A DNA stretch of 64,000 nt from positions 205 to 64,204 of the IMG/VR virus record IMGVR_UViG_3300044628_000433. The stretch is one strand, 5' to 3'. The notes under the pieces were generated by a model. It had not been told where the DNA came from, did no database searches, and saw nothing but the letters and a program-made list of their open reading frames with translations. A program made the translations under genes and the position numbers. Shown here in pieces: positions 38,991-64,000 of the stretch (positions are counted from its first letter, which is position 1; every line of letters starts with the position of its first letter). Origin of the DNA: a virus. Its lineage: Duplodnaviria; Caudoviricetes.

Positions 38991-39629
38991 ATGCCTCCAT
39001 TTACGGCAGCAATCGTCGGTGGTCTAGCCGCTGGATCTGGAATCTTAAGCGGAATGAGCGGAGCTTCTCAAGCAAACGCTCAGGCTATGGCCCAGCAGAT
39101 GCAACAAGACCAACAGAACTTTCAGAATCGTTGGGCTAATGAAACACAAAACAGAAACATTCTCAGACAGTGGCAAGCTCAGTACCACACGAATAGAGCA
39201 TTAGAACGCTCGTCATTGCAACAAGCTGTGGCAGCTCAGTACTATGGCACCAAGTCATATCAGAATGCCACGTCAGAACTTAGCAAGCAAACTCGTCAAG
39301 TTACAGATCAGGCATTAGCTTCTGCATCCTCTAGTGGTATTTCGTTGAACTCTGCTTCTGTTCGGGCAACCCTCAGACAAGCGGCAACGGAAGCTCAAAA
39401 GATGTCCAAGAATATGCGAGTTAATTATATGAACACAATGCAAGATATTTCTACACAACGAGAGAACATCTTGGGCCAAAGAAACCTAGCTGCTCCAGAG
39501 CAGATGGCTTTCTTAAACACAACGGGCGGTATTGTTAATTCGTCCTCAAACATTATGGCAACTGGCTTGGCTACTGGACTCATGTCTGGTCTATCTGCTG
39601 GTATCGGCGCATATAGGGCGGGATCATAA
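38991..39629 (+). CDS. Internal virion protein (gp14-like)
   Basis: Gly/Ala hydrophobic N- and C-termini; Gln-rich coil; SGISLNS; no Cys. Confidence 0.75.
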   Translation: MPPFTAAIVGGLAAGSGILSGMSGASQANAQAMAQQMQQDQQNFQNRWANETQNRNILRQWQAQYHTNRALERSSLQQAVAAQYYGTKSYQNATSELSKQTRQVTDQALASASSSGISLNSASVRATLRQAATEAQKMSKNMRVNYMNTMQDISTQRENILGQRNLAAPEQMAFLNTTGGIVNSSSNIMATGLATGLMSGLSAGIGAYRAGS

Positions 39630-43500: not shown

Positions 43501-45153
43501 GCCATTGCAACCGCTAAAAGAAATATGCAACGCATACAAGCTGGTATTGACAGTGGCGAGTTCAAGTTTGTTGTCGGTACGGACATTAGTAACCTAAACA
43601 AAAAGCAAACAGCAACAACTGTTGAACTTCGAAATAAGGATAATGTTCTAGCTACATTCCAACCATCTCCAATCAAGAAATCAATGCTTGGTTCTAATGC
43701 TCACCGCTCAGCATTAAAGAGAATGTCCAAAGAACAATTCTCCAGATTTGCAGTAGGTAAGATTAATGCTGGTGAGGTAAACCACGCAATGGTTGTGGAT
43801 TACCTAACCGCTAATGGTATCTCTAATCAATCCCTTAGAGAAACTACACAGTGGGGTAATATTATTCCATGGGCTTCACCGATGTCTGGTCTTCCTATTC
43901 CAATGAGTATTCCAAACGAAGATTATCGTTACGAGTATGTTGACCACATGGGTAAACCACAATGGTTTGTTACTAAGGATGGTGAGCCGAGACAGCCAGT
44001 AAACGGATTCTTATCTACTGATGGTTTAAAACCTTATCGAACAATATTAAAACCACAACCAAAAGCACCTCAACAACCCAAAACATCACAACAACCAAAA
44101 GAAACATACGGCAAATATGTTTACACTGGGGCAGAATCAAGATTATCTCGTCGTACTGGTGTAACTGGTATTGCTGGTAAGCCCCTGCTCATGTATGAGT
44201 GGAAGGGAATGGGTACGCCTTGGCAGTTAGATACAGCTCGTTATGGTGATGATACGTCACCTACAAAGGTAACGTTAGAGCCACAGGAAATGGAGTTTGA
44301 AACAACTCTTCGAAACACACTACAGGCACCGATGCCCTTTATGAAGACGTGGAGTGAATTTATTGCTCCACACATGAGGCCAAAACGGGAACAAGTAACA
44401 AGCACAAAAGACGCTTCACCTGCAATACAGACTTTTAGGGAGTGGGAAAAAGATCAAAAACTTTTGGGTGTTACATCCGAAACAACGGAAGAACCGGAAT
44501 CACGTCTTGGTGTACGTAGCGATGGTCTGATTGACCATAAGACCGTACTTACAACCGTTGCTGGTAAACCTGTTGTAATCTCCTACTCTAAGCCGACCCT
44601 CAGTAATAACTGGGTCATGGAGGTTGTTGAACCGGAGGTCGAAGAAAGCGAAAGCACAAACGGCTTCATGGACTTTAAGCGAGTATCCAGCGTTGTTAAG
44701 GGGGTTGCGGCTTCATTCATTTATGCCAAGCCAACTTCCAGTAAGAACTGGAATCTAATTCAGGGACCGATGGTAACTGATCTTGGTGGTGAAGTGATTC
44801 AATCACTGCAACAAGGATATGTAGATGGTCAGTTGTTTGGTCTTCGTCTTCCAACTAAAAATCAAGTAGTCAAGGCAGCAATGGAAGTAAACAATGCTGT
44901 TGAGAAATACTCGATGATTGCTGGTGAGGTTTGGAGACAAGCTCAACTTGCAAACTATATACACCCAACCAACAAGCATGTAAGACGGCAATACGTCGAA
45001 GCTCACGAAGCTTATATGAGATCATTAACTTTGATTGCAGAACGCAATCGAATCAGAAACCAACCACGCGAGACTGTAAAAATCTTCGATGACTTTGTGT
45101 CAAGAGAAGCTGATAATCTCGTTGAAATTTCTGATAATTATGTCGAACGATAA
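40594..45153 (+). CDS. Internal virion protein (gp15-like, enlarged; 1519 aa)
   Basis: Helical; no Cys seen; position in the ejection-protein cluster. Confidence 0.65.
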   Translation: MIEMQGPGVFLNPPNQPIYQETQVKLPENVVGVGQGIDWGAIGESVAKFGTELVSYDIEDKRKKKQRLLEDLEAKTQMSIDNASAYNDFDSVDAQITEYKNQVKEIVGYDIDSDGGGETSSALLEQARKTAYNFDLYGQRARRETADDVMLSAFNDDSLAFQEYLLTSDNPTFDIEGRLVQLEQMQKDVQDKPQKTMGDRAYLAAVRKEKIDLLETQGKMTAASAKSFNEAREADKKQLEGRIANHNKELRSIWERTEQLAKETSALRAKPDKTEAEVAELRSLEIRMNSEAYQVQRLEAIAYKLQDSYAQEFYGRSWDENIAKSMPEDTYSNILNAKNSRTNALNTASFLPYKRAEEAQRMQIASVTDRVNSAIRQAEADINLIDSVIKSAPEADRQGFINARHARITKLEKALLEINSGGVPLIVQDLTKTVDGLKFFGQSLKFDSSPTALTEFTANAVESYSQPHETIYKTFRNTVDKFNQFLSTRQDIPGSSITGDSREKRTKKNLASYSKLYQRIPNLNLNPSEINEVFLDVIQKNGVDPYQADGINIKPWSELSKEIQAAGIQLTPNGFLHTEIGVNAITELLRSNAPLDQWQNMLAFGSAGNEWFAVLNASHSESPMNGGVADMLAGALMNPDTRQAATAAFIMFTPKDHIASNLDRIRNTGIGQQNPAGFTNAFETLQALAKEHGGNGDPLKFIQGQLIDVELLKEKQRLQKLSRSSDVLQPLVGAYSTRENLSEETQDKVKLNAIMVELRDNVFPQIEARVGPNVNLQSLLTGNAVNPALREISEIAIGHYYDAKYDPRTKYSDEDLWEIAADRTNKSLQNFVVKSSGLQLEKPDTPEPPVGIADRFIAGSDIQYGLQDGGKQNLNVLLDADFDVNGLDKSTFNQYGTFTAPPTDMENPAAVALAVSAVRGMDVSGIPGNASSNIMAIATEVIGGHKDNRTMLVAQAALKDLGNPKTLTEAIATAKRNMQRIQAGIDSGEFKFVVGTDISNLNKKQTATTVELRNKDNVLATFQPSPIKKSMLGSNAHRSALKRMSKEQFSRFAVGKINAGEVNHAMVVDYLTANGISNQSLRETTQWGNIIPWASPMSGLPIPMSIPNEDYRYEYVDHMGKPQWFVTKDGEPRQPVNGFLSTDGLKPYRTILKPQPKAPQQPKTSQQPKETYGKYVYTGAESRLSRRTGVTGIAGKPLLMYEWKGMGTPWQLDTARYGDDTSPTKVTLEPQEMEFETTLRNTLQAPMPFMKTWSEFIAPHMRPKREQVTSTKDASPAIQTFREWEKDQKLLGVTSETTEEPESRLGVRSDGLIDHKTVLTTVAGKPVVISYSKPTLSNNWVMEVVEPEVEESESTNGFMDFKRVSSVVKGVAASFIYAKPTSSKNWNLIQGPMVTDLGGEVIQSLQQGYVDGQLFGLRLPTKNQVVKAAMEVNNAVEKYSMIAGEVWRQAQLANYIHPTNKHVRRQYVEAHEAYMRSLTLIAERNRIRNQPRETVKIFDDFVSREADNLVEISDNYVER

Positions 45154-45198: not shown

Positions 45199-48100
45199 AT
45201 GAATAACGATTTAGATCGACTTTTCGAAGAGAACAGCAAACCTCTTCCTTCAAAGTCACCTACCGTAAACTTCACAAATCCAACGTCTATGTATTCTGGT
45301 CAAACACCAGACATGGGCGAACAACAAATCAAGAATGAAAAGATTTCTCTTGGTCTTCTTAGCCCATCCTTTCTAAATGGAAGGTGGAATCTAACTGAAT
45401 CTGGGTTGACCAAAGAAGAAGTAGGCGATACAGCCCTTTCCTTTACTATTGGTGAGGGTTCTAAGGGATGGGGTGAACGCTCCATTCAAAAAGCATACCG
45501 TATGGTGGATCAGTTTGAGAACAAGGGCGATGCCATGTTCACAACGGATAACCGTGAAACTCACCACTGGGAACAGTTTGTAGAAGGTATTAACTTCTTC
45601 AATATTTTTGGAGAGAACGAAACGTTCCGTAGGGCCGATGAAGTTAAGAAGATTCTTAGCACTGTTGACCCAGAGTGGACTTATGAAAAGCAACTATCAG
45701 CCCTTACGGAGTGGCAAGAATCAAACCCAGAAGTAAATGACTTTGTGGCTCAGGCAGGAATTAATATCCAAGATTATGTACTAGAGACACGAAACCAACA
45801 AGCATTTATCTTTAACATTAACGAAGCCGTACAGCAAGCCAGATTAAACATCGGCATGCAACGGTTTGAAAAGGACAATGGAACGTTGTCCAAGCTTGGC
45901 AACTCCTTAATTGAGGGTATAAAAGACCCATTGATCCTCCGGGATATGGCACTCACCAGCGTAGCTACCCTTGGTTTGGGTACCGTGGCTGGCCTTGCTG
46001 GGGTCTCTGCCAGAGCCTTGTCTGGGTCGGTTGCTGCTGGTGTTAATTCCTCCCGCGCCCTTAGGGGTTTAAACCTCGTTAGACAGGCCGCTAACACCGC
46101 CGCGCTAGCGACAGGCCCAATGACTGGTCTCATCGAAGGACCAGCCTACGCGGCTATTAGGGCCGTTGTACCGTCAGCTGGTAGATCAGCTGTCAGTACC
46201 CTGTCAGCCCGTGGATTGGCATTAGCCCTTGAGGGTGGCGTTGCTGGGGCAGTATCGTCCTTGGCAGACCAGAAGGCCGATAACGAATGGCGTTCCTTGG
46301 TCTTTGCAGATACCGAAAAGGCGCTTAAGTATAACCTTGGCGAAACCGCCCTAGCTGCTCTAACTGGCTCCCTTGGTGCCGTTGGTGTTGCAAGCGCAGT
46401 ACGCTTTGGTCTGGGGTCCATCGGTGACTATAAGTATTATAAGACCGGAGACTGGGACGGTTTCCGTAGACAGATTGCAAACTCAATGGATACGTGGGCA
46501 ACCACCAAGGATGGCGATATCGTCTGGGGTAATACCCTTAGCGATGGTCGTGGTATCTTCTTTGGTGATACAGTCGATAAGTTTATGAAGAGCTATGACG
46601 GCAGAGACTTTACAAACGTCATGCTCAATGGCTCACGTCTCTTTGGTAAGTTCAATCCCCGTATTGCGGGTAAGATGAACCTTGACGTTAAGCGCGTCAT
46701 GCCAGTTATCGAAGAGTTTGAGAAGGCAACAGGTGTGGCTGGTGAAGCTGCTATGCTTAGCGTAGATGGCGTAGATCCAGAAACCCGTGGTATCTTTAAT
46801 CAACTTGTTAACGAGTCAAACCTTGCAGATGCAGACCTAACCATTGATGATGTTAAGGCTGTATTGGTTGATTACAATACCAAGCAACAACCACAACCAC
46901 CTACGGCAACTGGTCGGTTACTTACCGAAGCACCAGTAGCCACCCAACAAGTTGAGGTTGCAAGACAACTTAAGAGATTGGTTGCTGCCAAGAGTGTTGA
47001 TAGACGCTTGGAACAAATCGGATTATCATCCGCTACGGTTCTAAACAACGCAGAAGCAACACTTGGTCGCAGTATCAATCTATCGTCAGATGCAGATTTC
47101 CAGAACTTTATTACCGCCGCACGATACGAAGCGGCATCGGTAGATGAATCTCAGGTTGTAAATACCTTTAAGAGAATCGTCACTGGTGACTTTGGTGGCG
47201 GTCGTGTCATTCCAAAGGAAGTTGTTGATAGCATCTTTGTTGCAGCTTTTGGCGATAAGCCAATCGTTGTTACCGCAACGGGTTCAAATAAGAACTTTGC
47301 CGTTGTCGTTGATCCAAAGAATAAGGATGTCTTTGCCACCAAGCGAACCTTGGAGAAGGGCGATGATGGACAACTCAGCATTAAGCTTCGAGCCGATGAT
47401 CCTAAGTCCCCATTCTTCTCAAAGGATGTCCTTACGGTTGATACGGATACCTTGCAAGCAAAGCTTGTTGAGGTAAACGAAAAGCTTAACAAGGCTTGGA
47501 ATGACGTAAAGACGGCTAAGATTAAGGAAACAATTGAAAAGGTAAAGAAGACAAAGGTCAAGGAAGAACTTGTTAAGACCTTTGCTGAAGGTACCTCTGT
47601 AACCGTAGACAGCATTAAGAAGATCTTCGATCTTACTAAGGAAGAGGCTACGGTTGCTAAGATCATCATGGACTCATTAGGTTATGATGGTGATTCTAAT
47701 CTACTTAGAATCGCTTCCCTAGTGGCTGATGATAGAAACGCAGAGATCTTCTTCGAGGGTAACACCGCTCTTATTCGAGCAACCAAGTCTTCAGACGTTG
47801 GTACCGTTACCCACGAAATGTCTCACTACTTACAGGTAATGATTCTTGATGAACTTACTCCAGACGCTCGACATGCCATTGGTATTACAGACGAGATCTG
47901 GGAAAAGTTTAAGGACTGGGTTGGTTATACGGGAACTGAGTGGACCGAAAAGGCAGCAGAGAAGTTCGCTAATGGTATGTCACAATACGTTAGACGAGTT
48001 ATGTCTGGTGATGGTCGCGCTCCTAAGACCCAAGTTCAACGTCTATTCCACAGAATTGGCGACCACCTTGGAGATCTTGGTCAACGCTTCAAGAGCCAAG

Positions 48101-51100
48101 AGGCACTAGAAGCTGGCATGATAATGAGCAAGGAAGCCGAAGATGTATTCGAAGCTTTGTTCAATCGTTCCAACTCTAAGATCGGTGAGTTGTTTGACTC
48201 AGCCTATCAGGGCTTGTTTAAGCGATTGCCAAAGGAACAACGCCTTGCCATTGGTAAGGAAATCCTTGGAGAGATGGCCTTTAACGACTATCTTGCTAAG
48301 AAAGAAATTGAATTCGAAAAGGCTAAGCCAGTTGTAGATAAGCTTGCTGAAGCTGCGGCAACTAAGCCAGTTACTGTAACAAGTGTTGTGAATGAGATCT
48401 ATGAAAAGGTCAACAACGCAACACGTAAGGTCATTAAGGAAGCTATTGCTTCTGGTATGAGCAGAGAATCTGTTCTCACCTTCCTAAAGGACGAAGAAGC
48501 AAAGATTGGTACGGTTACATCTATTGATGCCCGTCCAGCTAATAAGCTTACAAAGCCAACAAAGCTTACAGACGAAGAGCTTGCAAAGTTTGCTGCAATT
48601 GAATCCCCATTCATCAGCGTTGTAGACGATGTAAAGGTTAAGTTTATTGATGCCGCTTTCAAGACTGAAGAGAGTAAGTTATTCTTCAGTAAGGAAGATC
48701 TACAGGATGAGATTAAGAGACGCGCTGCGTCAAAGGTCAGTAAGACTGAAACTGATATCGGTATTTCATCTGAGCTTAAGGCAGACCTTGAAGAACTTCT
48801 TGGTCCAGGAACCTTTGTCGATTCTGCTGGCATGAAGGTAGAACTAACCCCAACTGAAACTGTTGTTGCTACTAAGGTTGCAACCGTAGTTGAAACGGCT
48901 AAGGTAGACAAGGAACACGCTACGGCTGTCATTGCTGCTTTGGAAGAAGGTAGAACACTAGATGCTGTAGAAGCAAAACGTGCGCCTATCGTTACTCCAG
49001 AGGTTATCAATGTTGAAGAAACTCCAGTAAGCGTTGAGACTGAGCTTGTTGCTTTGGCTGCCATCAGTACTGAAGCTTCGGCTACAGCTGACAGCCTAAG
49101 TATTCCTGCAGCAAAGAAGGCCGAAGTTAAGACTGTTGTTGCTGCAGCTGTTGCAAATCCAAGTAGAGCCAAGTCTTTGCTTGAGAAGTATACTACTACA
49201 AAGCTTGAGGATGTTGCTGGTGTTTCTGCTAAAGCGGAAGCTACAACCACAAGACAGCTTCCAAGCGATCTAGTTAAGCAATTCTTTGAAGCTGAATTAC
49301 GCGCTCAAATCTCTAGACACACCATCGAAGGAATTATGGGTCTAGACGATAAGAACTTTAGTCGTTTCCTAGAATTAGAAAAACTAGCTGAAAAGTTTGA
49401 AGGTCCGCTTGATGCTTTAGTTAGAGAACCAACCCCAGAAAATCTACAAGCAACAGCTAATACCATTAACTGGTCAATGGAAGACTTGAAGGTTTACGTC
49501 AGCGGTGCATTGCACAAGCGTAACGGTTCTTTGATTGCAGAGTTTGTTGGAGCTAAGAAATTTGTAGAGCGGAACATTGATACAATTAAAGAAACTAGAA
49601 AATATATTGAGGATAAGAAGTCGGCTTATGATGCAGCTAGAGCTGTACCTGAGGCAAATAGATCTAAGGCTCAAGAAGACTTAATTAAGAAGTATGATAA
49701 AGCCAAGGGAACAGTCAGTCAATTTAATAACTCCATAGAGAGACTAAAGATTGGTGTACTTGGTAACACCGTACTCGAAGTAGTGCCACAGAAAATTAGT
49801 AAAGCTAAGGCTTATCTAGATAAGGGTGAGTCTATTCAAACAAAGTGGTTGCAACTACAGAGCCTTGGCGCAACGGTTCAAGACTTATTATTTAAAAATA
49901 TGATTGAAGCCGATCCAATTACTATTCTCAAAGCAATTGAGAAAAACATTGATCGTCTTGCTGAATTGGTTGAAACAGACGGAGAAGAAGTAGGTTTTCC
50001 GGACTGGAGAGAACTACCTAAGATTGAACTGTGGGCTAATGGATACATGAAATCAAAGGCTGCTTCCTCCTTTGTAAAGAAGATTATTCGTAATCTTGAA
50101 TTAAATGCAAAGCGAAGATTGGAAGGAACCAAGAAGAAGGTTGGAAGTGAAGAGGTAGTGGGTGCTAGTGGTGATGCGGTAAACGTATTAGAGGGATCGC
50201 AAAAGGTTGAAGGGGTGTACACAGACGATGAGAAAAAGGACTTCTACGTAAAGCAACAAGCTGAAAGCGAAGCTCTTAGAAATCTAGCTACACTGTTTCA
50301 TGCTCACCTAGTTGATATTGGTAAGACCGAACTCGCTGCTGTCTTTATGGCAAGACGTGAGGGTATATTACAAAAGGCTTCTGATATTGATAACACAGCA
50401 CGACTTCTAGAGAATTACGGAATTCAACTAACCGTAAATTCTGTTGAGAATCGTATCTCAGATCTTCGTAATGAACTTACAACATTTGTTGATGGTCTAG
50501 CAGAGGACGAAGCTAAGGCAATTCGAAAGCTTCTTGATCTTGAGTTTAAGCCTAAGAAACAAAAAACTCTTGCTCAACGCATCTCTACAGAAGACATGGA
50601 AGATCTATCAGAACGCTTAATGTCAGCTGGACCACTTGATGTCATTCGCGCTCCTGATTATTTAATCAGAGCTGCTCAAGAATCTTCCAGTGATCTCTAT
50701 AGAAGGATTCTTTCAGGTGAACTAGAAAATGGTGTTCAAGTTCTTGAAGAACTAGCGAACAATCCGCAATCAAAGTATAAGACACTTGCTGGTCAAATCC
50801 TAAACGAACATAGAGACTATTTAGAAACGGTCGGTGTTTGGGTAGCAAAGCTTGACGATAATACTGAGGGTCTATACACCTATGACAACATCTTCCTAAA
50901 TGTTAAGGAAGGTACGGTCAATGTACCAGCCCTCATTCACGAAGTCATTCACGCCATAACAACGAAGGAAATAGACGAAGCTGGCTTTACTCAAATAGAA
51001 GGACGTGGACACGTTGCCTATCTAGAAGCACTTCGCAATAGTGTTCAATCCGGTGTTGATCTAAACGGTAAAAAACTAAAGGCAAGTGTCAAGTCAATCG

Positions 51101-54100
51101 CTGCTAGTTATCTAGCAACAGTTGATTGGATTGATCGTACTCCTGAAGCTTTACAGTTATTGGGTTCAGACTATAAAGAAAAGTTTGTTGGTCGAGCTGA
51201 TGCTGTAGAGTTTCCCACAACAACCCACTATGCTTTGATCAATCTTCACGAATTCATTGCAAACACATTGACTGATTCTGATGTTCTCGCTTTCTTTGCT
51301 GGGGCTAAGGCTGCTAGTGGAGCAGCTAAAACAAGACCAGTTAAGGAAATGCTTAATGGTATTTCTAGGTCTATCTTTCCTAGAGCAACCGAAGAACAGA
51401 TAAAGAACGTTGATAAAACACTACAAGAAACTATTGTTTCAAATCTTGTAACTGGTGTGGTCAAGAGTAAGGTAGAACCAGTTGATCAAATGGGCATGGT
51501 ATTAATGCCTGAGCCTACTTATGTTCCCTTTAGATTAGTCGGTACTGAGATTCAAATTCCTGAGGTTGTTAGACTTGGAGATGAAGCTGAACTTCGTTCT
51601 GCTCTCAAATCTGCTAAGGGTAGGGTCTATGCTCAACTTAACAAGATTACGGAAGAAGAAGCTAAGGGTGGGGATTGGACTTTAGATGGTTCTATTCTAG
51701 AAAACGAATATGGTGAAGAATTCGAAGCTTTTGGTTTCGAGGACGGCACAATTGGTGCATTGCTTGCACACAACGAACTTGCGTATAAGGGCGCTACTAA
51801 GTATTTTGAAACACCTGATAAAGTCTTTATTAAGATAAAAACAAACGAAAAACCGTATTCTGACTCAGTAACACAAGCTTTACAACTTATTCTAGACGGT
51901 AGCTTATACGATCTTTTTCCAAAAATGGATTTACAGCAATTGTCGTATGAAAAGTATTCTAATAGTGACTTTGCAAAGCTACCCATTAATGAGCAATTAA
52001 AAACGGCTCAGTACGCATATACAAAAATTACAACTATTCAAAACTTACTACCATACAAACATAAGGTTTTTGAGACACAGAGCAATAATGCAAAAACATT
52101 ATTAGAAGCAGTTACTCAATTAAAATCAGCGTTAGACTTGGCTTTTCCACCCGAACCTACAATATCAAAGGTAGGTGATAGTAAGTATTTTAAGAAGCTT
52201 ACTGAGTTACCTACTATCTTCGATGAGTGGACGGTTGGAATAACCCATAAAGACTTATCAACAAGTGATGGTTATTACTTTAAGGTTAAAGATTATCAGA
52301 AAGATAATGCATTTATATTAAGTGCGCTTCTTACTCAAAAGCCACTAGAGTGGGCTGAAGACAATGGTGAGTTTATGCTTAAGTATACACCAACAATTAG
52401 CGAACTTTCAACAGCTCAACAAACATTGCTGTACTTTTTACTTGGGGAAGTACCAAGTTCTGATAAAGTTCCAATATGGGAACCAACAGTTTCTATACTC
52501 TACGATGTTCACTTAGAAAATTATTTTAAGGAATTTGGTGTGGATGGTATAAAAGCTGTACTTAAGTCTGAAATAGCACTTGACCTTATTCCAGTAGATA
52601 TTGATTCTCAAGTACTAATAGATATTAAAACAAATCTAAAGAAGTTAAGCAACTATTGGTATGATGAATTAGACAAAAAGGGTGTTAATGTAGAAGACGA
52701 TCTTTCTGCTGTTCCTACAGATGATGTACAATTTCTTTTAGATAACTATACCGTAGCAAAACTTGAAGTTGATTCGGTGTTTCCAGAAAACGCCACGATT
52801 ATTGGTCCACAACTTGGATCTAATCCAGGACATCAAGTTGAAATTAATGGTAGCAAGTATTATCTAAAGGCAGCAAAGAGCAAGCGGCATGCTAATATGG
52901 AAAGAGCAGCTCAGTTGCTCTATCGTATGCTTGGTCACGAATCCTTGGTATCTGAATTTACAGATGCTTCAAATCTTGGTTCCGAGTTTAAAACATCCAT
53001 TTTGACTCCCTGGGTAACAACAACCAAGTTTGATTTTGATAATAAGGACCACGCTGCAAAAGCAAAGTTGCTATACATTCCATCAGCTTGGCTTGCAAAT
53101 TGGGATGTCTTTGGTCAAACCTATGACAATGTTTCTGCCGAAGGTGTGATTCTTGATGCCGGAGGATCGCTTGTTTATAGAGCTAGGGGTGGAGAGAAGG
53201 ACTTTTCAAATACCTCTGTTAAGGAATTAGACTCGCTACGAGACCTAAGTAAAAACTTCACAGCAGCTAATATCTTTATGGAGCTAACACCAGAGGAAAT
53301 TAAAAGTCAGATTGCTAATTTAGAAGCAACGGCATCAAATGAACAAATTAGAGATGTTGTATTCAGTGTGTTTGATCTTTCAGATCCCTCTGAAAAAGCA
53401 GACGCTGACAATCTAGTTAAAACATTGATTGCTAGAAAAAACATTATTGTTGCATCTTTAAAGGAATTAGGTTCTATTGAGAGCAGAATGCCAACAGAGC
53501 TTCGTCGTTTTATCAAAATGCCAACTACGGCAGCCGAAGAAGATATCTTTTACATAAGAGAAGCAGCCAAAACCTTTGAAAACGCATCGCTAGAGGATAA
53601 GCAAAAAGCATTGGAATTTATGCACACCGTTCTAGCCAATGCTGACATGAGTGGAGAACTTCTTCGTTCTAATTTCTATAATGCTTATACAGAGTTTCGC
53701 TTAAAGTTATTGGGTGGTACTCAACTTAATAGAAGAGAACTTATTTCTAAATTCTTTACCAATGATAGTGGTAGAGATATTGCTATTAGAGATGAACTTG
53801 GAATGCCAATTACGTTTTATCGTGGAACTAATAGGCCAGATGTTGATGCTCAAAACGGCGATGAAGTAAGTAAAGGTTCTTGGTGGGGAACCGATCTAAA
53901 CGTTGCTAGAGATTATGGCGGCGGAAGATCTATTATGAGTGCTTATGCTGCCGTTCCACCAGAACGTATTAAGGTTGTTAAGCTTCGTGAAATGACACAT
54001 TGGTCACACGTAAAGAAATCAGATATCCTTGATCCAGAAGTTGTAAAGTATTTAGAAGATCGAAACTTTAACTTTGGTGGTAAAGTAGATGACATTGCAT

Positions 54101-57100
54101 TTGCTTACTTAGATCTTGTTGAAGATAAATATGATGCTGTACGATTGCTCGATGTTAAGGATTATGCAAAGCTTGGTTCAAAGAAAATTCCACACGATCA
54201 GTGGGTATTCAGACCAGATAAGCAACTCTTAAAGAATCGCAATGCTCTTGAGTTTAAGAAGACAGGATCACAAAATCTTCTATCGCAAAAGCGAGCTGTG
54301 CAAATCACAAGAGATATCATTGATGTCGCTAAGTCGGTTGGTGCAGACACGAAGGAACTAGAAGCAAAGCTTGCTGAGCTTGTTGACTCCGCTGAGGTTC
54401 GTAGACGTAATCTACTAGCTGCTGGCTTACATGAAGAAATGGAACCAGAAGATCTAGAGATTATCAATAGTATGATCAAGGGAACGAAGGCGTTTAGTCA
54501 GCCAGCCGTTGATCACCTCACACGAAGAACCAAGCCATCAGCTACCGTGGCTGCGGCTTCTAGAATTAAGTTCTCAGGTAAGAACTACAGAGACTTGACA
54601 GATGACGAAAGACGATCTTTCGTTAGTGACGTATTGCTTCCAACAGTAGAAGAAAAGCTTGGCAATAGAAACCGCAGTGCTGGTATCTATTCATTGATTA
54701 CCGACTCCAAGGTTGGTAAGGGCTTTAACTCTCTCGTTGGTGGTGGTGCCGCTTACGGCGATACTGCCGATGCTCAGTCAATGATGCTACAGTTCTTCTC
54801 AAAGATTTACGATCCTCTTATGGATCTTAGAGATGGTGAGCTATCAGGTACATTCGATCTCTTCTCCGTTGACATGGTTAACGCAGAAACAAATAACATG
54901 TACAGTGCAGCTGGTCTCTTGGATATCCAGAGAAAGATTACAGCTCAGGTCACAAAGACCGCAGAGTTGGAACAGCTATACGAAACAGCTTGGCTATACC
55001 TTGCTGATCTAGAGAGCTTACCAAGTAATGCCGTCCACAGAGAATTGATTGTGGAACTCATTAAGGGTGTCCACAAGTACAATACCTTGGTATCTGGCTT
55101 ACTTGAGAAGTATGGTACGTTGGTTACGCCAATGAAGCCAACAGAGTACGGTACAATCCACAAGGTCAACATGTTAGCCTTCGAGCAACAAGACCAGTTC
55201 GTTGATGCCCTTGTTAAGCATGCCTTGGCAAAGGAACGAGAAAGCAAGGATCTATCCATCATTACGTTGGATGCCTTGGGCTGGGTAAAGCTTACAAGAG
55301 ATTCGGTTTCTGACGATATCGTATCTGTTGAGGTTAAGGAAGGTTCACCTCTTGGTTATGAACCAGCTGTCTACAAGTATTCTGAATTCAAGAATATGGC
55401 TAAGAAAGCCTCACTTGGTAAGGATGCGTTGACTATCTATGAGGATGCCTTAGTGTCTTCTAGAAACTACGTCAACTGGGATATCTATCGGTCACGTGGT
55501 GATAACTATACGGCTCTTAGACATACGATGACCGTAGCTAAGAACCGATACCTCAACATCGACTCTCCAGAATCCCGTGGCGGTAAGCCACGTACTGAAG
55601 GTGTTGGTGGTGGACGTGAAATGGATATTACCAGAATCTTGTCCCACAACGATATCGCAAAGAATCCAGAACTTGCCAAGTACTTTGATAAGGATATCTA
55701 CGGATTGATCTATCAACAGTTACGAAGCAGTGTAACCGATGCCATTATGACCAAGTATATCACAGATATGTTTGGTGTTAAGATGTCATTCTTGGATCTC
55801 GTTGAGGTTTCTAGAAAGCACGGTGAGGCAAGCAGAGGTCAACTCGCTAAGACTGAACAGGATTCAGTAAACCGTGGTTATGACAGAATTAAGGATATCT
55901 GGGAATCAAATACCGGAAAGTTAATGGCAAGTAGAGACGGTCTAGATCGTCACTATAGGTCATTGCTTGAATCTGGCTCTAGACCCCTTGTCCTTTCAGC
56001 AAGTGGTCTCAGAGCGGCTTTAACCTCAACTGGTGAAACCGCAAGAGCTATCCTCGCTAGTAACCATAACCGTGGTATGCTACGTCAAGTAATTCCTAAC
56101 TTCATCCAGACCCTAAAGCTATTTAGTCGGGATAAGAGACAGACCATCCAGCAAGTAGCATCCGCTACTCACTGGCTCCGTGGTCTATCTTCTGACCACC
56201 TATTGTTAAGAGCTGAGATGAACCCAAACAATCCATTCGGTGGAACAATCATGGGTTCTAAGCAGGGTGGCTGGTTTAAGAGTTGGGCTGCATCTTGGGC
56301 AGGAGCTAAGGAACGAAACAAGTTAGAAGACTCTATTGTTGGTAAGGCAGCTAACTATCTGTCTATCCCAGCAAGTAGACTAGGCGCTCCTCTTGCTTTC
56401 GTAAACGATGTAACGACTACATTGCATGTCCAGAATATGCAATACAACCTTACAACAAACTCTTCAAAGTTCATGGCTCTTGCTAAAGCATTGAAGACAT
56501 CTAACCCAGAATCATTGTCTGACTTTGCATCTCTAGCTAAAAAGTGTGGTCTATCCCCCAAGGAAGCTATAGATCTATCTGCTCTGGGTTTATTAGACCC
56601 AGCTAGAATCCAAGTTATGATTGATGCAGCTAAGGACCAACGTAACTATTCCGAAGGTCTATTGGATATCCAACGTCTATTCCTATGGGCTGATGGAGAT
56701 CCCATCAGGATAGATACCATTAACCGTATGGGTGCCTTGGTAAACGCTACTACAAGACACACCAATACTGATCCTACCTTATTGGATCTACGGATTAATC
56801 AATCCCCCTATGCTAGATCTATGGGTGTATTCATGCAGTTCTTGCTTAGTCACTCTACCCAAGAAATAGGTAGACGTAGACGTTATACAACTACTGCATA
56901 CTCTAAGCACCTCGCTGGTCTAGTTATGATGGAATCTATTGCCTATAGCTTGGCTAGACCCAAGGATGACGATGATGATAGCTGGATCTGGGAAGACGCT
57001 AAGGAGAAACCAATCCAAACGGTAATTAAGGTAGGTACCTCTCTCCCTCTCTTGGGAAGCTATCAGTACCTATCTGCTCTTATCCGTATGGGTCTACTAG

Positions 57101-57222
57101 AAACCCACTCTCAGATTACTGGAGAGAAGTCAGATGAACGATATAGAATTCCTGATCTTTACTCTGGTCCTTCAGAGAACGTACCAAAGAAAGCTTTGGA
57201 TATGATCAAGGATCTATTGTAA
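45199..57222 (+). CDS. Giant multidomain internal virion protein (gp16-like polyvalent protein; 4007 aa)
   Basis: Gly/Ala-rich membrane-inserting N-region; two HEXXH motifs; sigma-like, kinase-like and ART-like segments; gp16-like C-terminus (MQF...LPLLG). Confidence 0.85.
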   Translation: MNNDLDRLFEENSKPLPSKSPTVNFTNPTSMYSGQTPDMGEQQIKNEKISLGLLSPSFLNGRWNLTESGLTKEEVGDTALSFTIGEGSKGWGERSIQKAYRMVDQFENKGDAMFTTDNRETHHWEQFVEGINFFNIFGENETFRRADEVKKILSTVDPEWTYEKQLSALTEWQESNPEVNDFVAQAGINIQDYVLETRNQQAFIFNINEAVQQARLNIGMQRFEKDNGTLSKLGNSLIEGIKDPLILRDMALTSVATLGLGTVAGLAGVSARALSGSVAAGVNSSRALRGLNLVRQAANTAALATGPMTGLIEGPAYAAIRAVVPSAGRSAVSTLSARGLALALEGGVAGAVSSLADQKADNEWRSLVFADTEKALKYNLGETALAALTGSLGAVGVASAVRFGLGSIGDYKYYKTGDWDGFRRQIANSMDTWATTKDGDIVWGNTLSDGRGIFFGDTVDKFMKSYDGRDFTNVMLNGSRLFGKFNPRIAGKMNLDVKRVMPVIEEFEKATGVAGEAAMLSVDGVDPETRGIFNQLVNESNLADADLTIDDVKAVLVDYNTKQQPQPPTATGRLLTEAPVATQQVEVARQLKRLVAAKSVDRRLEQIGLSSATVLNNAEATLGRSINLSSDADFQNFITAARYEAASVDESQVVNTFKRIVTGDFGGGRVIPKEVVDSIFVAAFGDKPIVVTATGSNKNFAVVVDPKNKDVFATKRTLEKGDDGQLSIKLRADDPKSPFFSKDVLTVDTDTLQAKLVEVNEKLNKAWNDVKTAKIKETIEKVKKTKVKEELVKTFAEGTSVTVDSIKKIFDLTKEEATVAKIIMDSLGYDGDSNLLRIASLVADDRNAEIFFEGNTALIRATKSSDVGTVTHEMSHYLQVMILDELTPDARHAIGITDEIWEKFKDWVGYTGTEWTEKAAEKFANGMSQYVRRVMSGDGRAPKTQVQRLFHRIGDHLGDLGQRFKSQEALEAGMIMSKEAEDVFEALFNRSNSKIGELFDSAYQGLFKRLPKEQRLAIGKEILGEMAFNDYLAKKEIEFEKAKPVVDKLAEAAATKPVTVTSVVNEIYEKVNNATRKVIKEAIASGMSRESVLTFLKDEEAKIGTVTSIDARPANKLTKPTKLTDEELAKFAAIESPFISVVDDVKVKFIDAAFKTEESKLFFSKEDLQDEIKRRAASKVSKTETDIGISSELKADLEELLGPGTFVDSAGMKVELTPTETVVATKVATVVETAKVDKEHATAVIAALEEGRTLDAVEAKRAPIVTPEVINVEETPVSVETELVALAAISTEASATADSLSIPAAKKAEVKTVVAAAVANPSRAKSLLEKYTTTKLEDVAGVSAKAEATTTRQLPSDLVKQFFEAELRAQISRHTIEGIMGLDDKNFSRFLELEKLAEKFEGPLDALVREPTPENLQATANTINWSMEDLKVYVSGALHKRNGSLIAEFVGAKKFVERNIDTIKETRKYIEDKKSAYDAARAVPEANRSKAQEDLIKKYDKAKGTVSQFNNSIERLKIGVLGNTVLEVVPQKISKAKAYLDKGESIQTKWLQLQSLGATVQDLLFKNMIEADPITILKAIEKNIDRLAELVETDGEEVGFPDWRELPKIELWANGYMKSKAASSFVKKIIRNLELNAKRRLEGTKKKVGSEEVVGASGDAVNVLEGSQKVEGVYTDDEKKDFYVKQQAESEALRNLATLFHAHLVDIGKTELAAVFMARREGILQKASDIDNTARLLENYGIQLTVNSVENRISDLRNELTTFVDGLAEDEAKAIRKLLDLEFKPKKQKTLAQRISTEDMEDLSERLMSAGPLDVIRAPDYLIRAAQESSSDLYRRILSGELENGVQVLEELANNPQSKYKTLAGQILNEHRDYLETVGVWVAKLDDNTEGLYTYDNIFLNVKEGTVNVPALIHEVIHAITTKEIDEAGFTQIEGRGHVAYLEALRNSVQSGVDLNGKKLKASVKSIAASYLATVDWIDRTPEALQLLGSDYKEKFVGRADAVEFPTTTHYALINLHEFIANTLTDSDVLAFFAGAKAASGAAKTRPVKEMLNGISRSIFPRATEEQIKNVDKTLQETIVSNLVTGVVKSKVEPVDQMGMVLMPEPTYVPFRLVGTEIQIPEVVRLGDEAELRSALKSAKGRVYAQLNKITEEEAKGGDWTLDGSILENEYGEEFEAFGFEDGTIGALLAHNELAYKGATKYFETPDKVFIKIKTNEKPYSDSVTQALQLILDGSLYDLFPKMDLQQLSYEKYSNSDFAKLPINEQLKTAQYAYTKITTIQNLLPYKHKVFETQSNNAKTLLEAVTQLKSALDLAFPPEPTISKVGDSKYFKKLTELPTIFDEWTVGITHKDLSTSDGYYFKVKDYQKDNAFILSALLTQKPLEWAEDNGEFMLKYTPTISELSTAQQTLLYFLLGEVPSSDKVPIWEPTVSILYDVHLENYFKEFGVDGIKAVLKSEIALDLIPVDIDSQVLIDIKTNLKKLSNYWYDELDKKGVNVEDDLSAVPTDDVQFLLDNYTVAKLEVDSVFPENATIIGPQLGSNPGHQVEINGSKYYLKAAKSKRHANMERAAQLLYRMLGHESLVSEFTDASNLGSEFKTSILTPWVTTTKFDFDNKDHAAKAKLLYIPSAWLANWDVFGQTYDNVSAEGVILDAGGSLVYRARGGEKDFSNTSVKELDSLRDLSKNFTAANIFMELTPEEIKSQIANLEATASNEQIRDVVFSVFDLSDPSEKADADNLVKTLIARKNIIVASLKELGSIESRMPTELRRFIKMPTTAAEEDIFYIREAAKTFENASLEDKQKALEFMHTVLANADMSGELLRSNFYNAYTEFRLKLLGGTQLNRRELISKFFTNDSGRDIAIRDELGMPITFYRGTNRPDVDAQNGDEVSKGSWWGTDLNVARDYGGGRSIMSAYAAVPPERIKVVKLREMTHWSHVKKSDILDPEVVKYLEDRNFNFGGKVDDIAFAYLDLVEDKYDAVRLLDVKDYAKLGSKKIPHDQWVFRPDKQLLKNRNALEFKKTGSQNLLSQKRAVQITRDIIDVAKSVGADTKELEAKLAELVDSAEVRRRNLLAAGLHEEMEPEDLEIINSMIKGTKAFSQPAVDHLTRRTKPSATVAAASRIKFSGKNYRDLTDDERRSFVSDVLLPTVEEKLGNRNRSAGIYSLITDSKVGKGFNSLVGGGAAYGDTADAQSMMLQFFSKIYDPLMDLRDGELSGTFDLFSVDMVNAETNNMYSAAGLLDIQRKITAQVTKTAELEQLYETAWLYLADLESLPSNAVHRELIVELIKGVHKYNTLVSGLLEKYGTLVTPMKPTEYGTIHKVNMLAFEQQDQFVDALVKHALAKERESKDLSIITLDALGWVKLTRDSVSDDIVSVEVKEGSPLGYEPAVYKYSEFKNMAKKASLGKDALTIYEDALVSSRNYVNWDIYRSRGDNYTALRHTMTVAKNRYLNIDSPESRGGKPRTEGVGGGREMDITRILSHNDIAKNPELAKYFDKDIYGLIYQQLRSSVTDAIMTKYITDMFGVKMSFLDLVEVSRKHGEASRGQLAKTEQDSVNRGYDRIKDIWESNTGKLMASRDGLDRHYRSLLESGSRPLVLSASGLRAALTSTGETARAILASNHNRGMLRQVIPNFIQTLKLFSRDKRQTIQQVASATHWLRGLSSDHLLLRAEMNPNNPFGGTIMGSKQGGWFKSWAASWAGAKERNKLEDSIVGKAANYLSIPASRLGAPLAFVNDVTTTLHVQNMQYNLTTNSSKFMALAKALKTSNPESLSDFASLAKKCGLSPKEAIDLSALGLLDPARIQVMIDAAKDQRNYSEGLLDIQRLFLWADGDPIRIDTINRMGALVNATTRHTNTDPTLLDLRINQSPYARSMGVFMQFLLSHSTQEIGRRRRYTTTAYSKHLAGLVMMESIAYSLARPKDDDDDSWIWEDAKEKPIQTVIKVGTSLPLLGSYQYLSALIRMGLLETHSQITGEKSDERYRIPDLYSGPSENVPKKALDMIKDLL

Positions 57223-57237
57223 TCTAGCTAGAATGCC

Positions 57238-57300
57238 ATTAGAGACGTTCCTGCAGTTAAGACCCCCATCCATAGGGGTAGACTCAGGAACGTCTCTAAT
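57238..57300. repeat. Long inverted repeat after the last gene
   Basis: ATTAGAGACGTTCCTG / CAGGAACGTCTCTAAT, perfect 16 bp. Confidence 0.9.
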
Positions 57301-57340
57301 AGGCTTATAGGAGGTTTATTGGGGTGGGGTATTTACCTAG

Positions 57341-57373
57341 ACGAGCAGTCCCTGATTTGGTGCTAGGGAACAA
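57341..57373 (+). promoter_or_regulatory. Candidate phage RNAP promoter, copy 2 (phi-OR-like position)
   Basis: ACGAGCAGTCCCTGATTTGGTGCTAGGGAACAA. Confidence 0.65.
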
Positions 57374-57459
57374 CCTAGCTGTGATGGAACACAATAAAAC
57401 AAGAGCGGACTCTCCACTAGGGGAGAGTCTAGGAAAGATAGTAAGGGGAGTATCTAGGG

Positions 57460-57570
57460 ATAACGTAAGGAAGTAACGTAGGATTGTCTTAGAATAATAA
57501 CGTTACATAAACCCATAACATAAAACACATAGGGAAGTCCTAAGGATATACCCCATACATAACCATTTCA
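57460..57570. repeat. Short AT-rich iterated repeats (TAACGTA / CATAA)
   Basis: TAACGTA twice, TAACGTT, TAACATA and several CATAA; comparable to short-repeat arrays near T7-like termini. Confidence 0.55.
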
Positions 57571-57656
57571 CTTTGGAGTTGATCGTTTGGGGACAACGCC
57601 CGATAGCTCCAAAGCCGCCTCAGGTACATTCCCCCGTCTGTATCCTGAGTCTATCT

Positions 57657-57692
57657 ATCCCGCTTCCCCTTAACGGGGGAGGTGGGGTTTTC
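57657..57692 (+). terminator. Rho-independent terminator near the genome end
   Basis: ATCCCGCTTCCCCT-TAAC-GGGGGAGGTGGGGT followed by TTTC; G-U pairs favour + strand RNA. Confidence 0.65.
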
Positions 57693-57837
57693 TAAGAAAA
57701 CGTTTTAGGTATCGAAAATTTTAGGAGGGTACCCCCTTCCCCCACCGGGTATTGGCGTCCCCCTCTACCCCCCCGGCCCTGCGGGAAATTTACCCGGCCT
57801 GCGGCTGCTTACCCCCCCTCGGGACAGTCTAGTATCA

Positions 57838-58225
57838 GCGATCTTCCGCAGAGAGTGACCCTTGGGGTGTTACTGCGGAGGGGATCGCAAGGATAGCCGC
57901 GCCTACTTTGTAGGTTTTATGTTACGGGCTACCTTCCCAAACCTTCGGTTTGAAAGTTACTGAAGCCTAACATGTCGTGACGAGCGGCGATAGGGTATGA
58001 TCCTGCGATACGTTCGCAGGGGTGAATCATCCCGCGTCAAGTCTCAAGTGCGATCTCGGAGACGAGTGAGGCTAGGTAACGAATAAGATCGAAGGCAGTC
58101 TACCGCGTAGGGTGTCATCCTACGTTGAAATTCCCGCAACAAAGTCTTTGTTTCAAACATTGACGCGGGAACGTTGGAAACGACGTTCCTGCGATTCGTT
58201 TCAAGGGATGTTCCCTTGAAACTTT
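57838..58225 (+). ncRNA. Large structured RNA / early leader candidate
   Basis: Dense helices, including TCCCGCGTCAA(58030)/TTGACGCGGGA(58160); no credible ORF. Confidence 0.55.
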
Positions 58226-59334: not shown

Positions 59335-59433
59335 ATGTACGTGACTGAATTGTTCTTCTACTGTGCCGTGGCAATGTTTGTGACGGGATGTATCTACGTG
59401 GCTGGCAACATGATCTCTAACCTTGAGGATTGA
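59335..59433 (+). CDS. 32-aa single-TM peptide (not in ORF track)
   Basis: GGAG SD; MYVTELFFYCAVAMFVTGCIYVAGNMISNLED. Confidence 0.6.
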   Translation: MYVTELFFYCAVAMFVTGCIYVAGNMISNLED

Positions 59434-59435
59434 TA

Positions 59436-59762
59436 ATGCGTCAAATTGAACGTGCAATGTGCATCGCAATTCGTTCGAACAAATCTTTCAAGCGTGGAAA
59501 TACGGAAGTGTTGGTGACAAACAACGGTGCGGAGGTGTTCCTGCACGGGAATAGTATCGCACGATATCACCGTCCGTCACACACTATGTTTGTGACGTTG
59601 TGTGGGTGGAATACTAGCACAACAAAGTCACGAATCAATGCCCTGCTTGATTCGTTCGGGACTGGTGTACGAGTGTACACTAAGAAGTTTGAGCCACACT
59701 ATATGGTGTGTGGTCAATCGTTTGAATTTGAGAGCGAAGGACATATCTTCCTCTGTAACTAA
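59436..59762 (+). CDS. Early protein of a widespread phage type (LHGN..IA...GW...TTKSRINAL)
   Basis: GAGG SD; motif pattern. Confidence 0.75.
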   Translation: MRQIERAMCIAIRSNKSFKRGNTEVLVTNNGAEVFLHGNSIARYHRPSHTMFVTLCGWNTSTTKSRINALLDSFGTGVRVYTKKFEPHYMVCGQSFEFESEGHIFLCN

Positions 59763-63189: not shown

Positions 63190-64000
63190 ATGAACAATCT
63201 CTGTTATGGTAAGAAGTGGATAGCAGAAAAGAATAAGGAACATAAACTTAATCTTAATGCTGTCATAGAAGAAGCAATGGCTGATAAGTCTATCATGGAT
63301 TACTGTAAGGAACGTAATAGAATCCTTGGAGTACCTGAAACAGATTTATGTTATGCTCTGGTAGACAAGACTGAACAAGCCATTGAGGAATATCTTAGCG
63401 AGTTATCTAAGAGAAACCTTTCTTGGATTACCCCGATCTACAAACTTGGATCTAGGACTGTCTCTGCTATCATTGTCTCTACGTATTTGGATTTTGTGTT
63501 TGTTGATGGCTCTCTTCCTAAGTTACAGTCAGTCATCAAACATATGCGTGTCAACCTTGAACTCGCAAGTACATTCCATCAGACACGTTCAGACAACTCA
63601 GGTGCATGGGTTCTTGCTTCACGTTCTCTTGGTACAAAGTGGACGAAGCGTCAGATGCAACAGTTTATGAAGACACACAGTGCATCTGTTGATTGCAGAA
63701 TCCCAAAGAAGGATGGAGATACCTTGTGTCTTCATCTTATCGAGGTGTTAATCAAGGTAGGGTTGTGTGTTGAACGTCACTCTTACGACAGTAAGGGAAA
63801 CAGGACAACGTGGTTGATGCCATCTAATTCTGTCACGGACAACTTGAATGCCGTGCATGAAGAACTTATGGCAATGGCAAAGATTATCTATGCCCCCATG
63901 ATTGTTCCACCAGTACGTCACACAATCAACGAGTGTGGTGGTACACATTCACCACATCTCCGCAAGGGTATTGTGTCATCGTCGTATCTCTTCTTTCAAG
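63190..64000 (+). CDS. T7-like RNA polymerase, N-terminal part (continues across the overlap to 1701)
   Basis: Open from ATG 63190 (MNNLCYGKKW...) to ...KIIYAPMIVPP, matching the T7 P-x-x-VPP segment. Confidence 0.9.
   Translation, partial: MNNLCYGKKWIAEKNKEHKLNLNAVIEEAMADKSIMDYCKERNRILGVPETDLCYALVDKTEQAIEEYLSELSKRNLSWITPIYKLGSRTVSAIIVSTYLDFVFVDGSLPKLQSVIKHMRVNLELASTFHQTRSDNSGAWVLASRSLGTKWTKRQMQQFMKTHSASVDCRIPKKDGDTLCLHLIEVLIKVGLCVERHSYDSKGNRTTWLMPSNSVTDNLNAVHEELMAMAKIIYAPMIVPPVRHTINECGGTHSPHLRKGIVSSSYLFFQ
63886..64000. repeat. Terminal overlap of circular assembly (identical to 1-115)
   Basis: Exact sequence match. Confidence 0.97.

Follow-up and report, generated by a model that had tools for sequence, protein, structure and literature searches.

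In the 64,000-nt stretch of viral DNA analyzed in this study (positions 205 to 64,204 of IMG/VR record IMGVR_UViG_3300044628_000433; the whole stretch is hereafter called the window), a giant open reading frame (ORF) of 4007 amino acids (aa) is predicted to contain a HipA/CtkA-like atypical kinase domain at aa 2530-2756 (52786..53466, boundaries from the envelope of the family hidden Markov model, HMM). The ORF (P0002, 45199..57222) and all of its features described below are on the + strand. Judged from sequence comparison, the domain represents a large family that is without a name and is covered by no Pfam, NCBIfam or PHROG model, and within the giant protein it appears to be an exchangeable module of the cargo that fills the variable center of this polyvalent protein. 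Based on the modeled fold and the gene context, we favor, with a probability of roughly 0.6, that this domain is an active phosphotransferase, that it is carried as cargo by a polyvalent protein that is probably ejected, and that host proteins are the foremost candidates for its substrates.

Catalytic motifs and their conservation

A preliminary description of this DNA, made from the letters alone, had placed an atypical "HopBF1/PI3-4-kinase-like" kinase domain at 52795-53450 (aa 2533-2750). All of the motif strings that it named were found exactly in frame 1 of this interval and in frame with the 4007-aa ORF, namely, GPQLGSNPG (aa 2536-2544), YYLK (2554-2557), ANMERAA (2565-2571), WLANWD (2631-2636), DN (2643-2644), ILDAGGSL (2651-2658), and YRA.G (2660-2664). 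The span defined by the family HMM is slightly wider, and a six-frame translation of the window contains one copy only.

Conservation was then counted over 176 domain copies that were cut from family members and aligned. In the Gly-rich loop GPQLGSNPGH (aa 2536-2545, 52804..52833), which lies between strands 1 and 2 of the structural model, G2540, S2541, and G2544 are kept in 172, 163, and 170 copies, respectively. The putative strand-3 lysine K2557 of YYLK (52867..52869, model strand E38-44) and the putative helix-C glutamate E2568 of HANME (52900..52902, model helix H48-63) are each kept in 173 copies, and the latter was aligned to the "DNE" of HipA by hhalign in a non-significant comparison. 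The predicted catalytic loop, N2634-W-D2636-VFGQTY-D2643-N2644 (53098..53130), follows model helix H112-117 and precedes strand E131-132; in it, N2634 is present in every copy, D2636 in 172, G2639 in 173, D2643 in 160, and N2644 in 175. The DFG-type position of the metal-binding Asp was assigned by conservation to D2653-A-G-G (53155..53166), with D2653, G2655, and G2656 found in 172, 170, and 174 copies, and R2661 and G2664 just beyond it in 167 and 174. Therefore, the residues that the preliminary description had proposed as catalytic are near-invariant in the family. Further conserved positions are specific to this family, comprising K2667 (174/176), E2676, R2681 (157/176), N2686, F2693, and R2746. 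The window domain itself keeps all of the near-invariant positions, and its only notable departure is H2545, where 142 of the 176 copies have G. An alignment of 40 sequences (A1) contained 16 invariant columns. Because 2971 relatives were detected (see below) and the named residues are near-invariant among the aligned copies, the motif set lies far beyond chance.

Predicted fold

AlphaFold2 (AF2) given the single sequence produced an unusable model, with a predicted local distance difference test score (pLDDT) of 42.7, while the model built from alignment A1 reached a pLDDT of 91.5 and a predicted template-modeling (TM) score of 0.88. In this model, three strands are followed by a long helix, two strands, two short helices, a loop, a small hairpin, and a helical bundle, an order of secondary structure that corresponds to the kinase plan. 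K2557 is placed in the third strand and E2568 in the next helix, and D2653-x-G-G comes just after the hairpin that follows the N-W-D...D-N segment, so that all canonical phosphotransfer residues are modeled at the places expected from the fold, with their roles assigned by analogy. The C-lobe is retained in the model, with helices after DxGG at model residues 162-165, 173-179, 184-197, 200-208, and 216-249.

The model was compared by VIA-align with 48,161 representative chains, a search in which chance maxima typically reach Z 7-8 according to the note of the tool. All of the 50 best matches listed were kinase-fold proteins. The highest score was obtained for CtkA (3akj; Z 15.0, 206 aligned residues, root-mean-square deviation, rmsd, 3.5), followed by CotH (5jda; Z 14.3, 220 aligned, rmsd 3.5), MavQ (Z 12.3, 226 aligned, rmsd 4.0), HipA (4pu3; Z 12.0, 193 aligned, rmsd 3.5), PI4KII-alpha (Z 12.0, 216 aligned, rmsd 4.4), Fam20 (Z 11.3, 214 aligned, rmsd 3.8), actin-fragmin kinase (Z 10.4, 215 aligned, rmsd 4.5), and HipT (Z 9.8, 199 aligned, rmsd 4.4). 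Consistently, a Foldseek search against the PDB, which the preliminary description had proposed as a check, recovered the kinase fold: 14 matches had E<=1e-3, every match listed was a kinase, and the top match was CtkA of Helicobacter pylori (E 4.5e-5, TM 0.57), with Vps34, BRAF, actin-fragmin kinase, LepB, CotH, and WaaP next. When the top 1000 Foldseek matches were realigned, CtkA (3akk) scored Z 15.6 and HipA up to 12.2. Over both structure comparisons, PI3K/Vps34 scored Z 8-9 (8.3-8.8 for Vps34) and were thus farther than CtkA, CotH, and HipA.

These results well support, at the level of a model, a kinase fold of the protein-kinase-like (PKL) superfamily, in which the HipA/CtkA, CotH, and PI4K type would be the nearest branch. 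The earlier assignment therefore holds for the atypical kinase fold, and holds broadly for the likeness to PI3/4-kinases, with CtkA, CotH, and HipA being nearer; its HopBF1 part found no support, HopBF1 being absent among the matches listed by Foldseek, by VIA-align, and in the realigned Foldseek set.

Size and spread of the family

A phmmer search with aa 2515-2775 against 1.84 billion (1.84e9) representative proteins, where the representatives are clusters at 50% identity, found 2971 relatives at E<=1e-3, 1313 at E<=1e-10, and 10 at E<=1e-30, while a word-index homolog search for the domain had returned just 7 proteins. The region shared by these relatives is a discrete unit of ~225 residues at a highly variable position in proteins of 263 to 7004 aa, the 263-aa ones being stand-alone forms of the domain. 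Two to five copies, in tandem or dispersed, were found in 28 of the 150 best homologs, and one 3416-aa protein (P0003) combines five kinase copies with an ADP-ribosyltransferase (ART) domain. The family occurs in phages of Pseudomonas, enterobacteria, Aeromonas, and Gordonia, and in marine-type podoviruses.

Known sequence profiles touched this family at few points. Pfam covers the domain in none of 43 full-length homologs, with the exception of P0003, for which the scores summed over five copies were 67.5 bits for HipA_C (cut-off 30.5), 64.7 for APH (23.2), and 45.7 for HipA_2 (27). Weak HipA_C matches were obtained for 6 of 40 family members, the best at E 0.0052, and HipA_2 and PI3_PI4_kinase were the named clusters nearest to the window domain in a protein-language-model atlas. 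NCBIfam, searched with the domain and 7 homologs, matched only the ART, NUDIX, and MuF parts of the homologs, and phmmer of aa 2468-2834 against PDB sequences gave chance matches only. The A1 profile was rejected as a kinase test against the PDB, since the ART domains of the homologs dominate its matches (VIP2, CdtA, iota, and C3).

The cargo site of the giant protein

The giant ORF is a single open frame; a pseudogene or a chance ORF was ruled out, as the frame is open over 12 kb and orthologs exist. Close relatives from IMG/VR have giant ORFs of 3531 aa (L002) and 3176 aa (L003 and L004, each), and the more distant full-length orthologs have 4237 (P0007), 4417 (P0013), and 4538 aa (P0096). 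BLASTP of the giant protein against these relatives divided it into three parts, an N block, a variable center, and a C block. The conserved N block (aa 1-~2155, 45199..51663) has no Pfam or PHROG assignment, its identity being 51-52% with L002-L004 and 31-32% with P0007/P0013. For the conserved C block (aa 3020-4007, 54256..57219), the identity is 75-78% with L002-L004 and 44-50% with P0007/P0013/P0096. Between them lies the variable central cargo section (aa ~2156-3019, 51664..54255).

The content of this section differs among the relatives. In L003 and L004, the N block is joined straight to the C block and the cargo site is empty, while L002 has a 321-aa insert at the site (L002:9041-10003), in which an ART-PolyVal domain was clearly recognized at 69.3 bits, above the cut-off of 31.2; the family HMM found no kinase domain in L002, L003, or L004. 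In P0007, P0013, and P0096, a kinase domain with 42, 37, and 34% identity to that of the window, respectively, directly follows the N block, and other inserts without assignment lie C-terminal to it, followed by a stretch that is shared with aa 2780-3020 of the window protein. In the window, the section begins with ~370 aa without assignment (aa 2156-2528, 51664..52782), which have no Pfam match and are common to none of the compared relatives; next come the kinase and, starting 24 residues after it, a weakly ART-PolyVal-like stretch (aa 2780-3020, 53536..54258).

For this ART-like stretch, which is common to the window and P0007/P0013, the Pfam ART-PolyVal model did not reach its cut-off of 31.2, scoring 12.6 bits at aa 2865-2920 (E 0.25), and the protein-language-model atlas gave ART-PolyVal as 27 of 30 named neighbors (score 0.90, low recognition). 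Where the ART-PolyVal domain of L002 reads MYHG, the window reads FYRG, and the histidine of the NAD site appears replaced by arginine. In-house HMMs for ART, NUDIX, and MuF found none of these domains in the giant protein of the window, even at E<=10 with filters off. Because none of 573 candidates was a relative of similar length, and BLASTP against the ART-PolyVal of L002 was non-significant (E 1.2), the stretch is graded only as a possible ART-PolyVal-like domain.

The N block has further features. Hydrophobic, Gly/Ala-rich segments are present at aa 250-270 and 383-403, and two zincin-type motifs, HEMSH (aa 872-876, 47812..47826) and HEVIH (aa 1914-1918, 50938..50952), keep the HExxH pattern in 6 of 6 orthologs, neither with a family HMM match. 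Both motifs may be zincin peptidase sites by which the giant protein is processed, in agreement with the autoprocessing metallopeptidases that Iyer et al. (2017) consider for polyvalent proteins (PMC5512222). Together, the single polypeptide has a polyvalent-type makeup, with a predicted kinase domain, two HExxH motifs, and a weak ART-PolyVal-like stretch.

Genome context of the giant gene

The 64-kb window is nearly the entire 64,204-nt IMG/VR record, which has an estimated completeness of 95%. A PHROGs scan of it detected a T7-type single-subunit RNA polymerase, a primase-helicase, a family-A DNA polymerase, and a ribonucleotide reductase, together with portal, scaffold, and major capsid proteins, tail tubular proteins A and B, a long fiber, and the large terminase (TerL). 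As the RNA polymerase gene is split over both ends (N-terminal part 63190-63999, C-terminal part 13-1701), the "linear" record is taken as a circularly permuted assembly. TerL is ~39% identical to that of T7-like cyanophages and other T7-like phages, and by these gene contents the source appears to be a distant T7-like phage.

On the 3′ side of TerL, consecutive ORFs of 220, 322, 1519, and 4007 aa rise in size, and the giant ORF is the final gene of the late block. For the 1519-aa ORF (40594-45153) that directly precedes the giant gene, Pfam and PHROGs gave no match; by its position, this ORF is a candidate gp15-like ejection protein. A blastn search with 37319-45153 found a 63-nt terminase stretch as its sole match. 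After the giant gene comes an ORF-poor stretch of ~950 nt (57223-58173), a possible location of the genome end or of early promoters. The small early genes lie beyond it, and among the ORFs listed for their region (57.2-63.2 kb) none exceeds 157 aa. An N4-type virion RNA polymerase was ruled out as the identity of the giant ORF, which has no RNA polymerase PHROG while a T7-type RNA polymerase gene is present.

Elsewhere in the window, a P-loop dNMP kinase (12080-12784) was the only other kinase found. A fiber-like protein of 1860 aa (30791-36373) has two Mtd_N (major tropism determinant N-terminal) matches plus phage tail repeat (PTR) units. The accessory genes encode a Kyanoviridae Gp96-family protein (59430-59762), ThyX (6879-7526), a RusA resolvase (4232-4597), and a dUTPase (13828-14388); these four genes, with a TerL nearest to those of cyanopodoviruses, hint at an aquatic host.

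Proposed mechanism and alternative explanations

In the mechanism that we propose, the giant protein would behave like T7 gp16 and the polyvalent proteins of Iyer et al. (2017): packaged in the capsid, it would leave the virion before the DNA or together with it. The cargo would then possibly be cleaved free by the two HExxH motifs of the N block and reach the cytoplasm, where the kinase and the adjacent ART-like module would meet host ATP and their targets before any phage gene expression. In the active site, the ATP phosphates would be held by K2557 and E2568 and the metal by N2644 and D2653, with D2636 as the catalytic base, while the most likely job would be the phosphorylation of host proteins for take-over or anti-defense. 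The parts of this reading differ in strength. That the domain is an active phosphotransferase is quite probable, and delivery of the giant protein in the virion is, by analogy, reasonably probable; host proteins as the targets are given close to even odds. We infer the status of a virion protein from the position in the late block, the variable cargo, and homologs fused to MuF, portal, and head-morphogenesis domains.

Several results weigh against the phosphorylation of host proteins by a delivered kinase. Regarding the kinase assignment, the window domain gave no match to a kinase HMM, with thresholds of E<=10 for Pfam and E<=0.01 for both PHROGs and NCBIfam, and the giant ORF gave none to a kinase PHROG at E<=0.01; the stand-alone family profile (A2) found no kinase among PDB sequences, only FliG at E 0.14; and hhalign against Escherichia coli HipA was non-significant both with A2 (E 0.065) and with the 176-copy alignment (E 0.059). 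The catalytic loop is, from Asp to Asn, 3 residues longer than that of HipA and has a second conserved Asp, D2643, and the assignment of the catalytic base is uncertain for these reasons. Since the lipid kinases MavQ, PI4KII, and LepB are among the best structural matches, a protein substrate is not assured. Regarding delivery, tblastn against 50,697 phage records found no homolog of the N block and C block and no match of the 1519-aa neighbor, and none of the three has a PHROG of internal virion proteins. The giant ORF has no sequence similarity to T7 gp16 and no lytic transglycosylase domain (Pfam), and the genes here come after TerL, not after tail tubular protein B as in the T7 order. The homolog in Pseudomonas phage Dolphis, a 1222-aa "ADP-ribosyltransferase," lies among small non-structural genes. 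Further, no biochemical or proteomic report on any member of the family was found in the literature searched.

The domain partners of the homologs bear on the substrate. They were counted in the best 150 of the 2971 homologs with in-house HMMs built from Pfam-defined ART, NUDIX, and MuF segments, on which the counts depend and by which divergent ARTs such as ART-PolyVal are missed. Of the 150, 89 have a VIP2/C3-type ART, which is located downstream of the final kinase copy in 85 of these proteins and within 60 residues of the C-terminus in 76. A NUDIX domain occurs in 31 of the 150, upstream of the kinase in 27 of the 31, and MuF in 15, with portal fusions too. In Gordonia phage Forza (L006 3844-12200), the portal gp77 is directly followed by the homolog gp78; two genes upstream is the MuF-like gp75, and gp80, a separate ADP-ribosyltransferase of 1017 aa, is encoded two genes downstream of gp78. 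Among the structural neighbors in BFVD are proteins with the annotations HK97 portal, head morphogenesis, and ADP-ribosyltransferase.

This NUDIX-kinase-ART order, the nearness of the kinase and ART genes in Forza, and the ART-PolyVal-like stretch so close behind the window kinase speak for an active kinase with a non-protein substrate in a pathway with ART and NUDIX, for instance, a small molecule, a nucleotide, an NAD/ADP-ribose derivative, an ADP-ribosylated product, or a lipid. The family-specific basic residues after DxGG (R2661, K2667, and R2681) and the presence of MavQ, PI4KII, LepB, APH, and WaaP among the structural matches point the same way. However, the two best structural matches, CtkA and CotH, are annotated as protein kinases; 61 of the 150 homologs, the window protein among them, have no VIP2-type ART, and stand-alone 263-aa forms exist. 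The spacing from kinase to ART varies from 6 to 1857 residues, and the co-occurrence may merely reflect the co-delivery of independent effectors (PMC5512222). We consider a non-protein substrate unlikely. A bolder version would make the window domain the founding example of a very large HipA/CtkA-like kinase clade (about 3000 clusters at 50% identity) that is carried in phage capsids as the obligate partner of ART, acting on the ADP-ribose or NAD side of the reaction, for instance by phosphorylating an ADP-ribosyl mark or an NAD-derived immune signal, and, in T7-like phages that lack gp0.7, replacing the early kinase. Both the tight order from kinase to ART and the invariant basic residues behind DxGG would fit an ADP-ribose or NAD-linked substrate, and this version is offered as a speculation with a small chance of being right.

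A kinase that is real but not delivered would act late inside the cell, in assembly, lysis timing, or superinfection, or would be packed without reaching the cytoplasm of the next host. The lack of homology to known internal virion or ejection proteins, the gene position after TerL, and the Dolphis homolog outside the structural module would all agree with this. On the other hand, a variable effector section between conserved blocks, with ART-PolyVal in a sister phage, fits the polyvalent pattern (PMC5512222), homologs are fused to MuF, portal, and head-morphogenesis domains, and the ejection proteins of podoviruses are usually recognized by size and synteny, not by sequence (PMC8954989). A role without delivery seems rather improbable.

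Reactions other than phosphotransfer are catalyzed by some enzymes with a kinase fold, such as SelO and SidJ. For the window domain, a different chemistry (AMPylation or another nucleotidyl transfer), or a non-catalytic binding or regulatory module for the neighboring ART, could be suggested by the unusual Gly-rich loop GxQxGSNPGG, by the lengthened catalytic loop with its extra conserved Asp, and by the lack of any match to canonical-kinase sequence HMMs, but this alternative is very improbable: every canonical phosphotransfer residue is kept in 160-176 of 176 copies, which speaks against a non-catalytic role, and no specific sign of a flipped nucleotide or another reaction was found.

Implications

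Recent work on T7K has shown that phage kinases can act broadly against host defenses (PMC13645617). If the kinases of the family described here are active and delivered ready-made, host phosphorylation before phage expression would be a common and overlooked infection strategy, and the strict order, with the kinase ahead of the ART, would suggest that the two form a combined modification system. If the reading of an obligate NUDIX-kinase-ART partnership were true, it would amount to a two-step host modification or anti-defense chemistry at DNA entry that has not yet been described. The sister phages with an empty or otherwise filled cargo site form a natural comparison set, and the idea is open to direct tests, since the domain is present in phages that can be cultivated on Gordonia (Forza gp78), Pseudomonas (Dolphis gp117), and E. 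coli (Escherichia phage ECML-606-1, gene 47).

Comparison with known systems

CtkA, HipA, and HipT (PF07804 HipA_C, PF20613 HipA_2) are the nearest solved structures to the window domain. By eye, five segments follow in the same order in the translation of E. coli HipA and in the window domain: the Gly loop (VAGAQEK in HipA, IGPQLGS in the window domain), the strand-3 lysine (HIIK and YYLK), helix C (DNEYYCLLLAKELG and ANMERAAQLLYRMLG), the catalytic loop (QWLIGATDGHAKN and AWLANWDVFGQTYDN), and the metal-binding Asp (FYD and ILD). The two thus share a G-x-Q Gly loop, an (H/Y)xxK strand, an "NE...L...LG" helix C, and a "WL....D" start of the catalytic loop, and D2636 would pair with HipA D309, N2644 with N314, D2653 with D332, and K2557 with K181. 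As hhalign was non-significant, these collinear parallels are only suggestive, and the PDB titles of HipA(D309Q) and HipA(S150A) are evidence only that such mutants were studied. The window domain has no match to the HipA_C and HipA_2 HMMs at E<=10. Compared with HipA, the Asp-to-Asn spacing is 8 instead of 5, with an extra conserved Asp, and the metal motif of the family is DxGG, followed by an invariant YRAxGxxK segment. The giant ORF has neither the HipA N-terminal domain nor a HipB/HipS partner (Pfam), and the family sits in phage multidomain proteins amid late genes, not in a toxin-antitoxin operon.

The likeness to CotH, PI4KII-alpha, MavQ/LepB, and Fam20 is at the fold level (Z 10.6-14.3, 198-226 aligned residues), while the identity is 11-14% with no HMM match. 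Because their substrates differ (spore-coat proteins, phosphoinositides, and secreted proteins), no function is transferred from them. Similarly, neither the window domain nor 40 homologs matched the PI3/PI4-kinase model PF00454, and the likeness to this group is at the fold level only.

The giant protein may resemble T7 gp16, the N4 vRNAP-ART fusions, and P1 DarB in being the largest product of a run of late podovirus genes of rising size, here placed after TerL, and in having conserved blocks with exchangeable cargo; the differences from T7 gp16 and from the T7 gene order are those given above.

T7K, the product of T7 gene 0.7 (gp0.7), phosphorylates host proteins widely and disarms several defense systems, and its homologs, 190 viral and 32 bacterial proteins, are almost confined to T7-like phages (PMC13645617). 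The window kinase shares with it the T7-type virus and an expected action at the very start of infection. However, T7K is a separately transcribed early gene, while the window kinase is part of a late giant protein, and the two have no sequence relation, the family described here being >10 times larger (2971 clusters). The preliminary description had recognized no separate gp0.7-type kinase gene in this DNA, and none was found at the HMM level among 59 window ORFs by PHROGs or 31 by Pfam.

Kinases within injected polyvalent proteins are known in print (PMC5512222). The kinase that Iyer et al. (2017) reported from polyvalent proteins is monophyletic, lacks the entire C-terminal subdomain through loss, and occurs mainly in elements of the Verrucomicrobia-Chlamydia group and Bacteroidetes (PMC5512222); in Pfam, it is the family Kinase-PolyVal. 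The window domain is like Kinase-PolyVal (PF18762) in being a predicted kinase-fold domain in a polyvalent protein of the kind proposed to be injected with DNA (PMC5512222). In contrast, its model keeps the helical C-lobe, and the family occurs in the Pseudomonas, enterobacterial, Aeromonas, Gordonia, and marine-type phages instead of the range given in PMC5512222. PF18762 had no match in the genome of the window at E<=10, and it matched 0 of 40 and 0 of 43 homologs in two scans. Since PF18762 does not match and the C-lobe is kept, the kinase here would be a different family in the same niche. In the literature searched, which did not include the web supplements of Iyer et al. (2017), where the domain may be labeled otherwise, the domain family and the NUDIX-kinase-ART architecture are undescribed. 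Accordingly, what this study adds to these known systems is the family and its size, a modeled HipA/CtkA-like fold with a full C-lobe, the cargo site in a T7-like phage, and the NUDIX-kinase-ART order.

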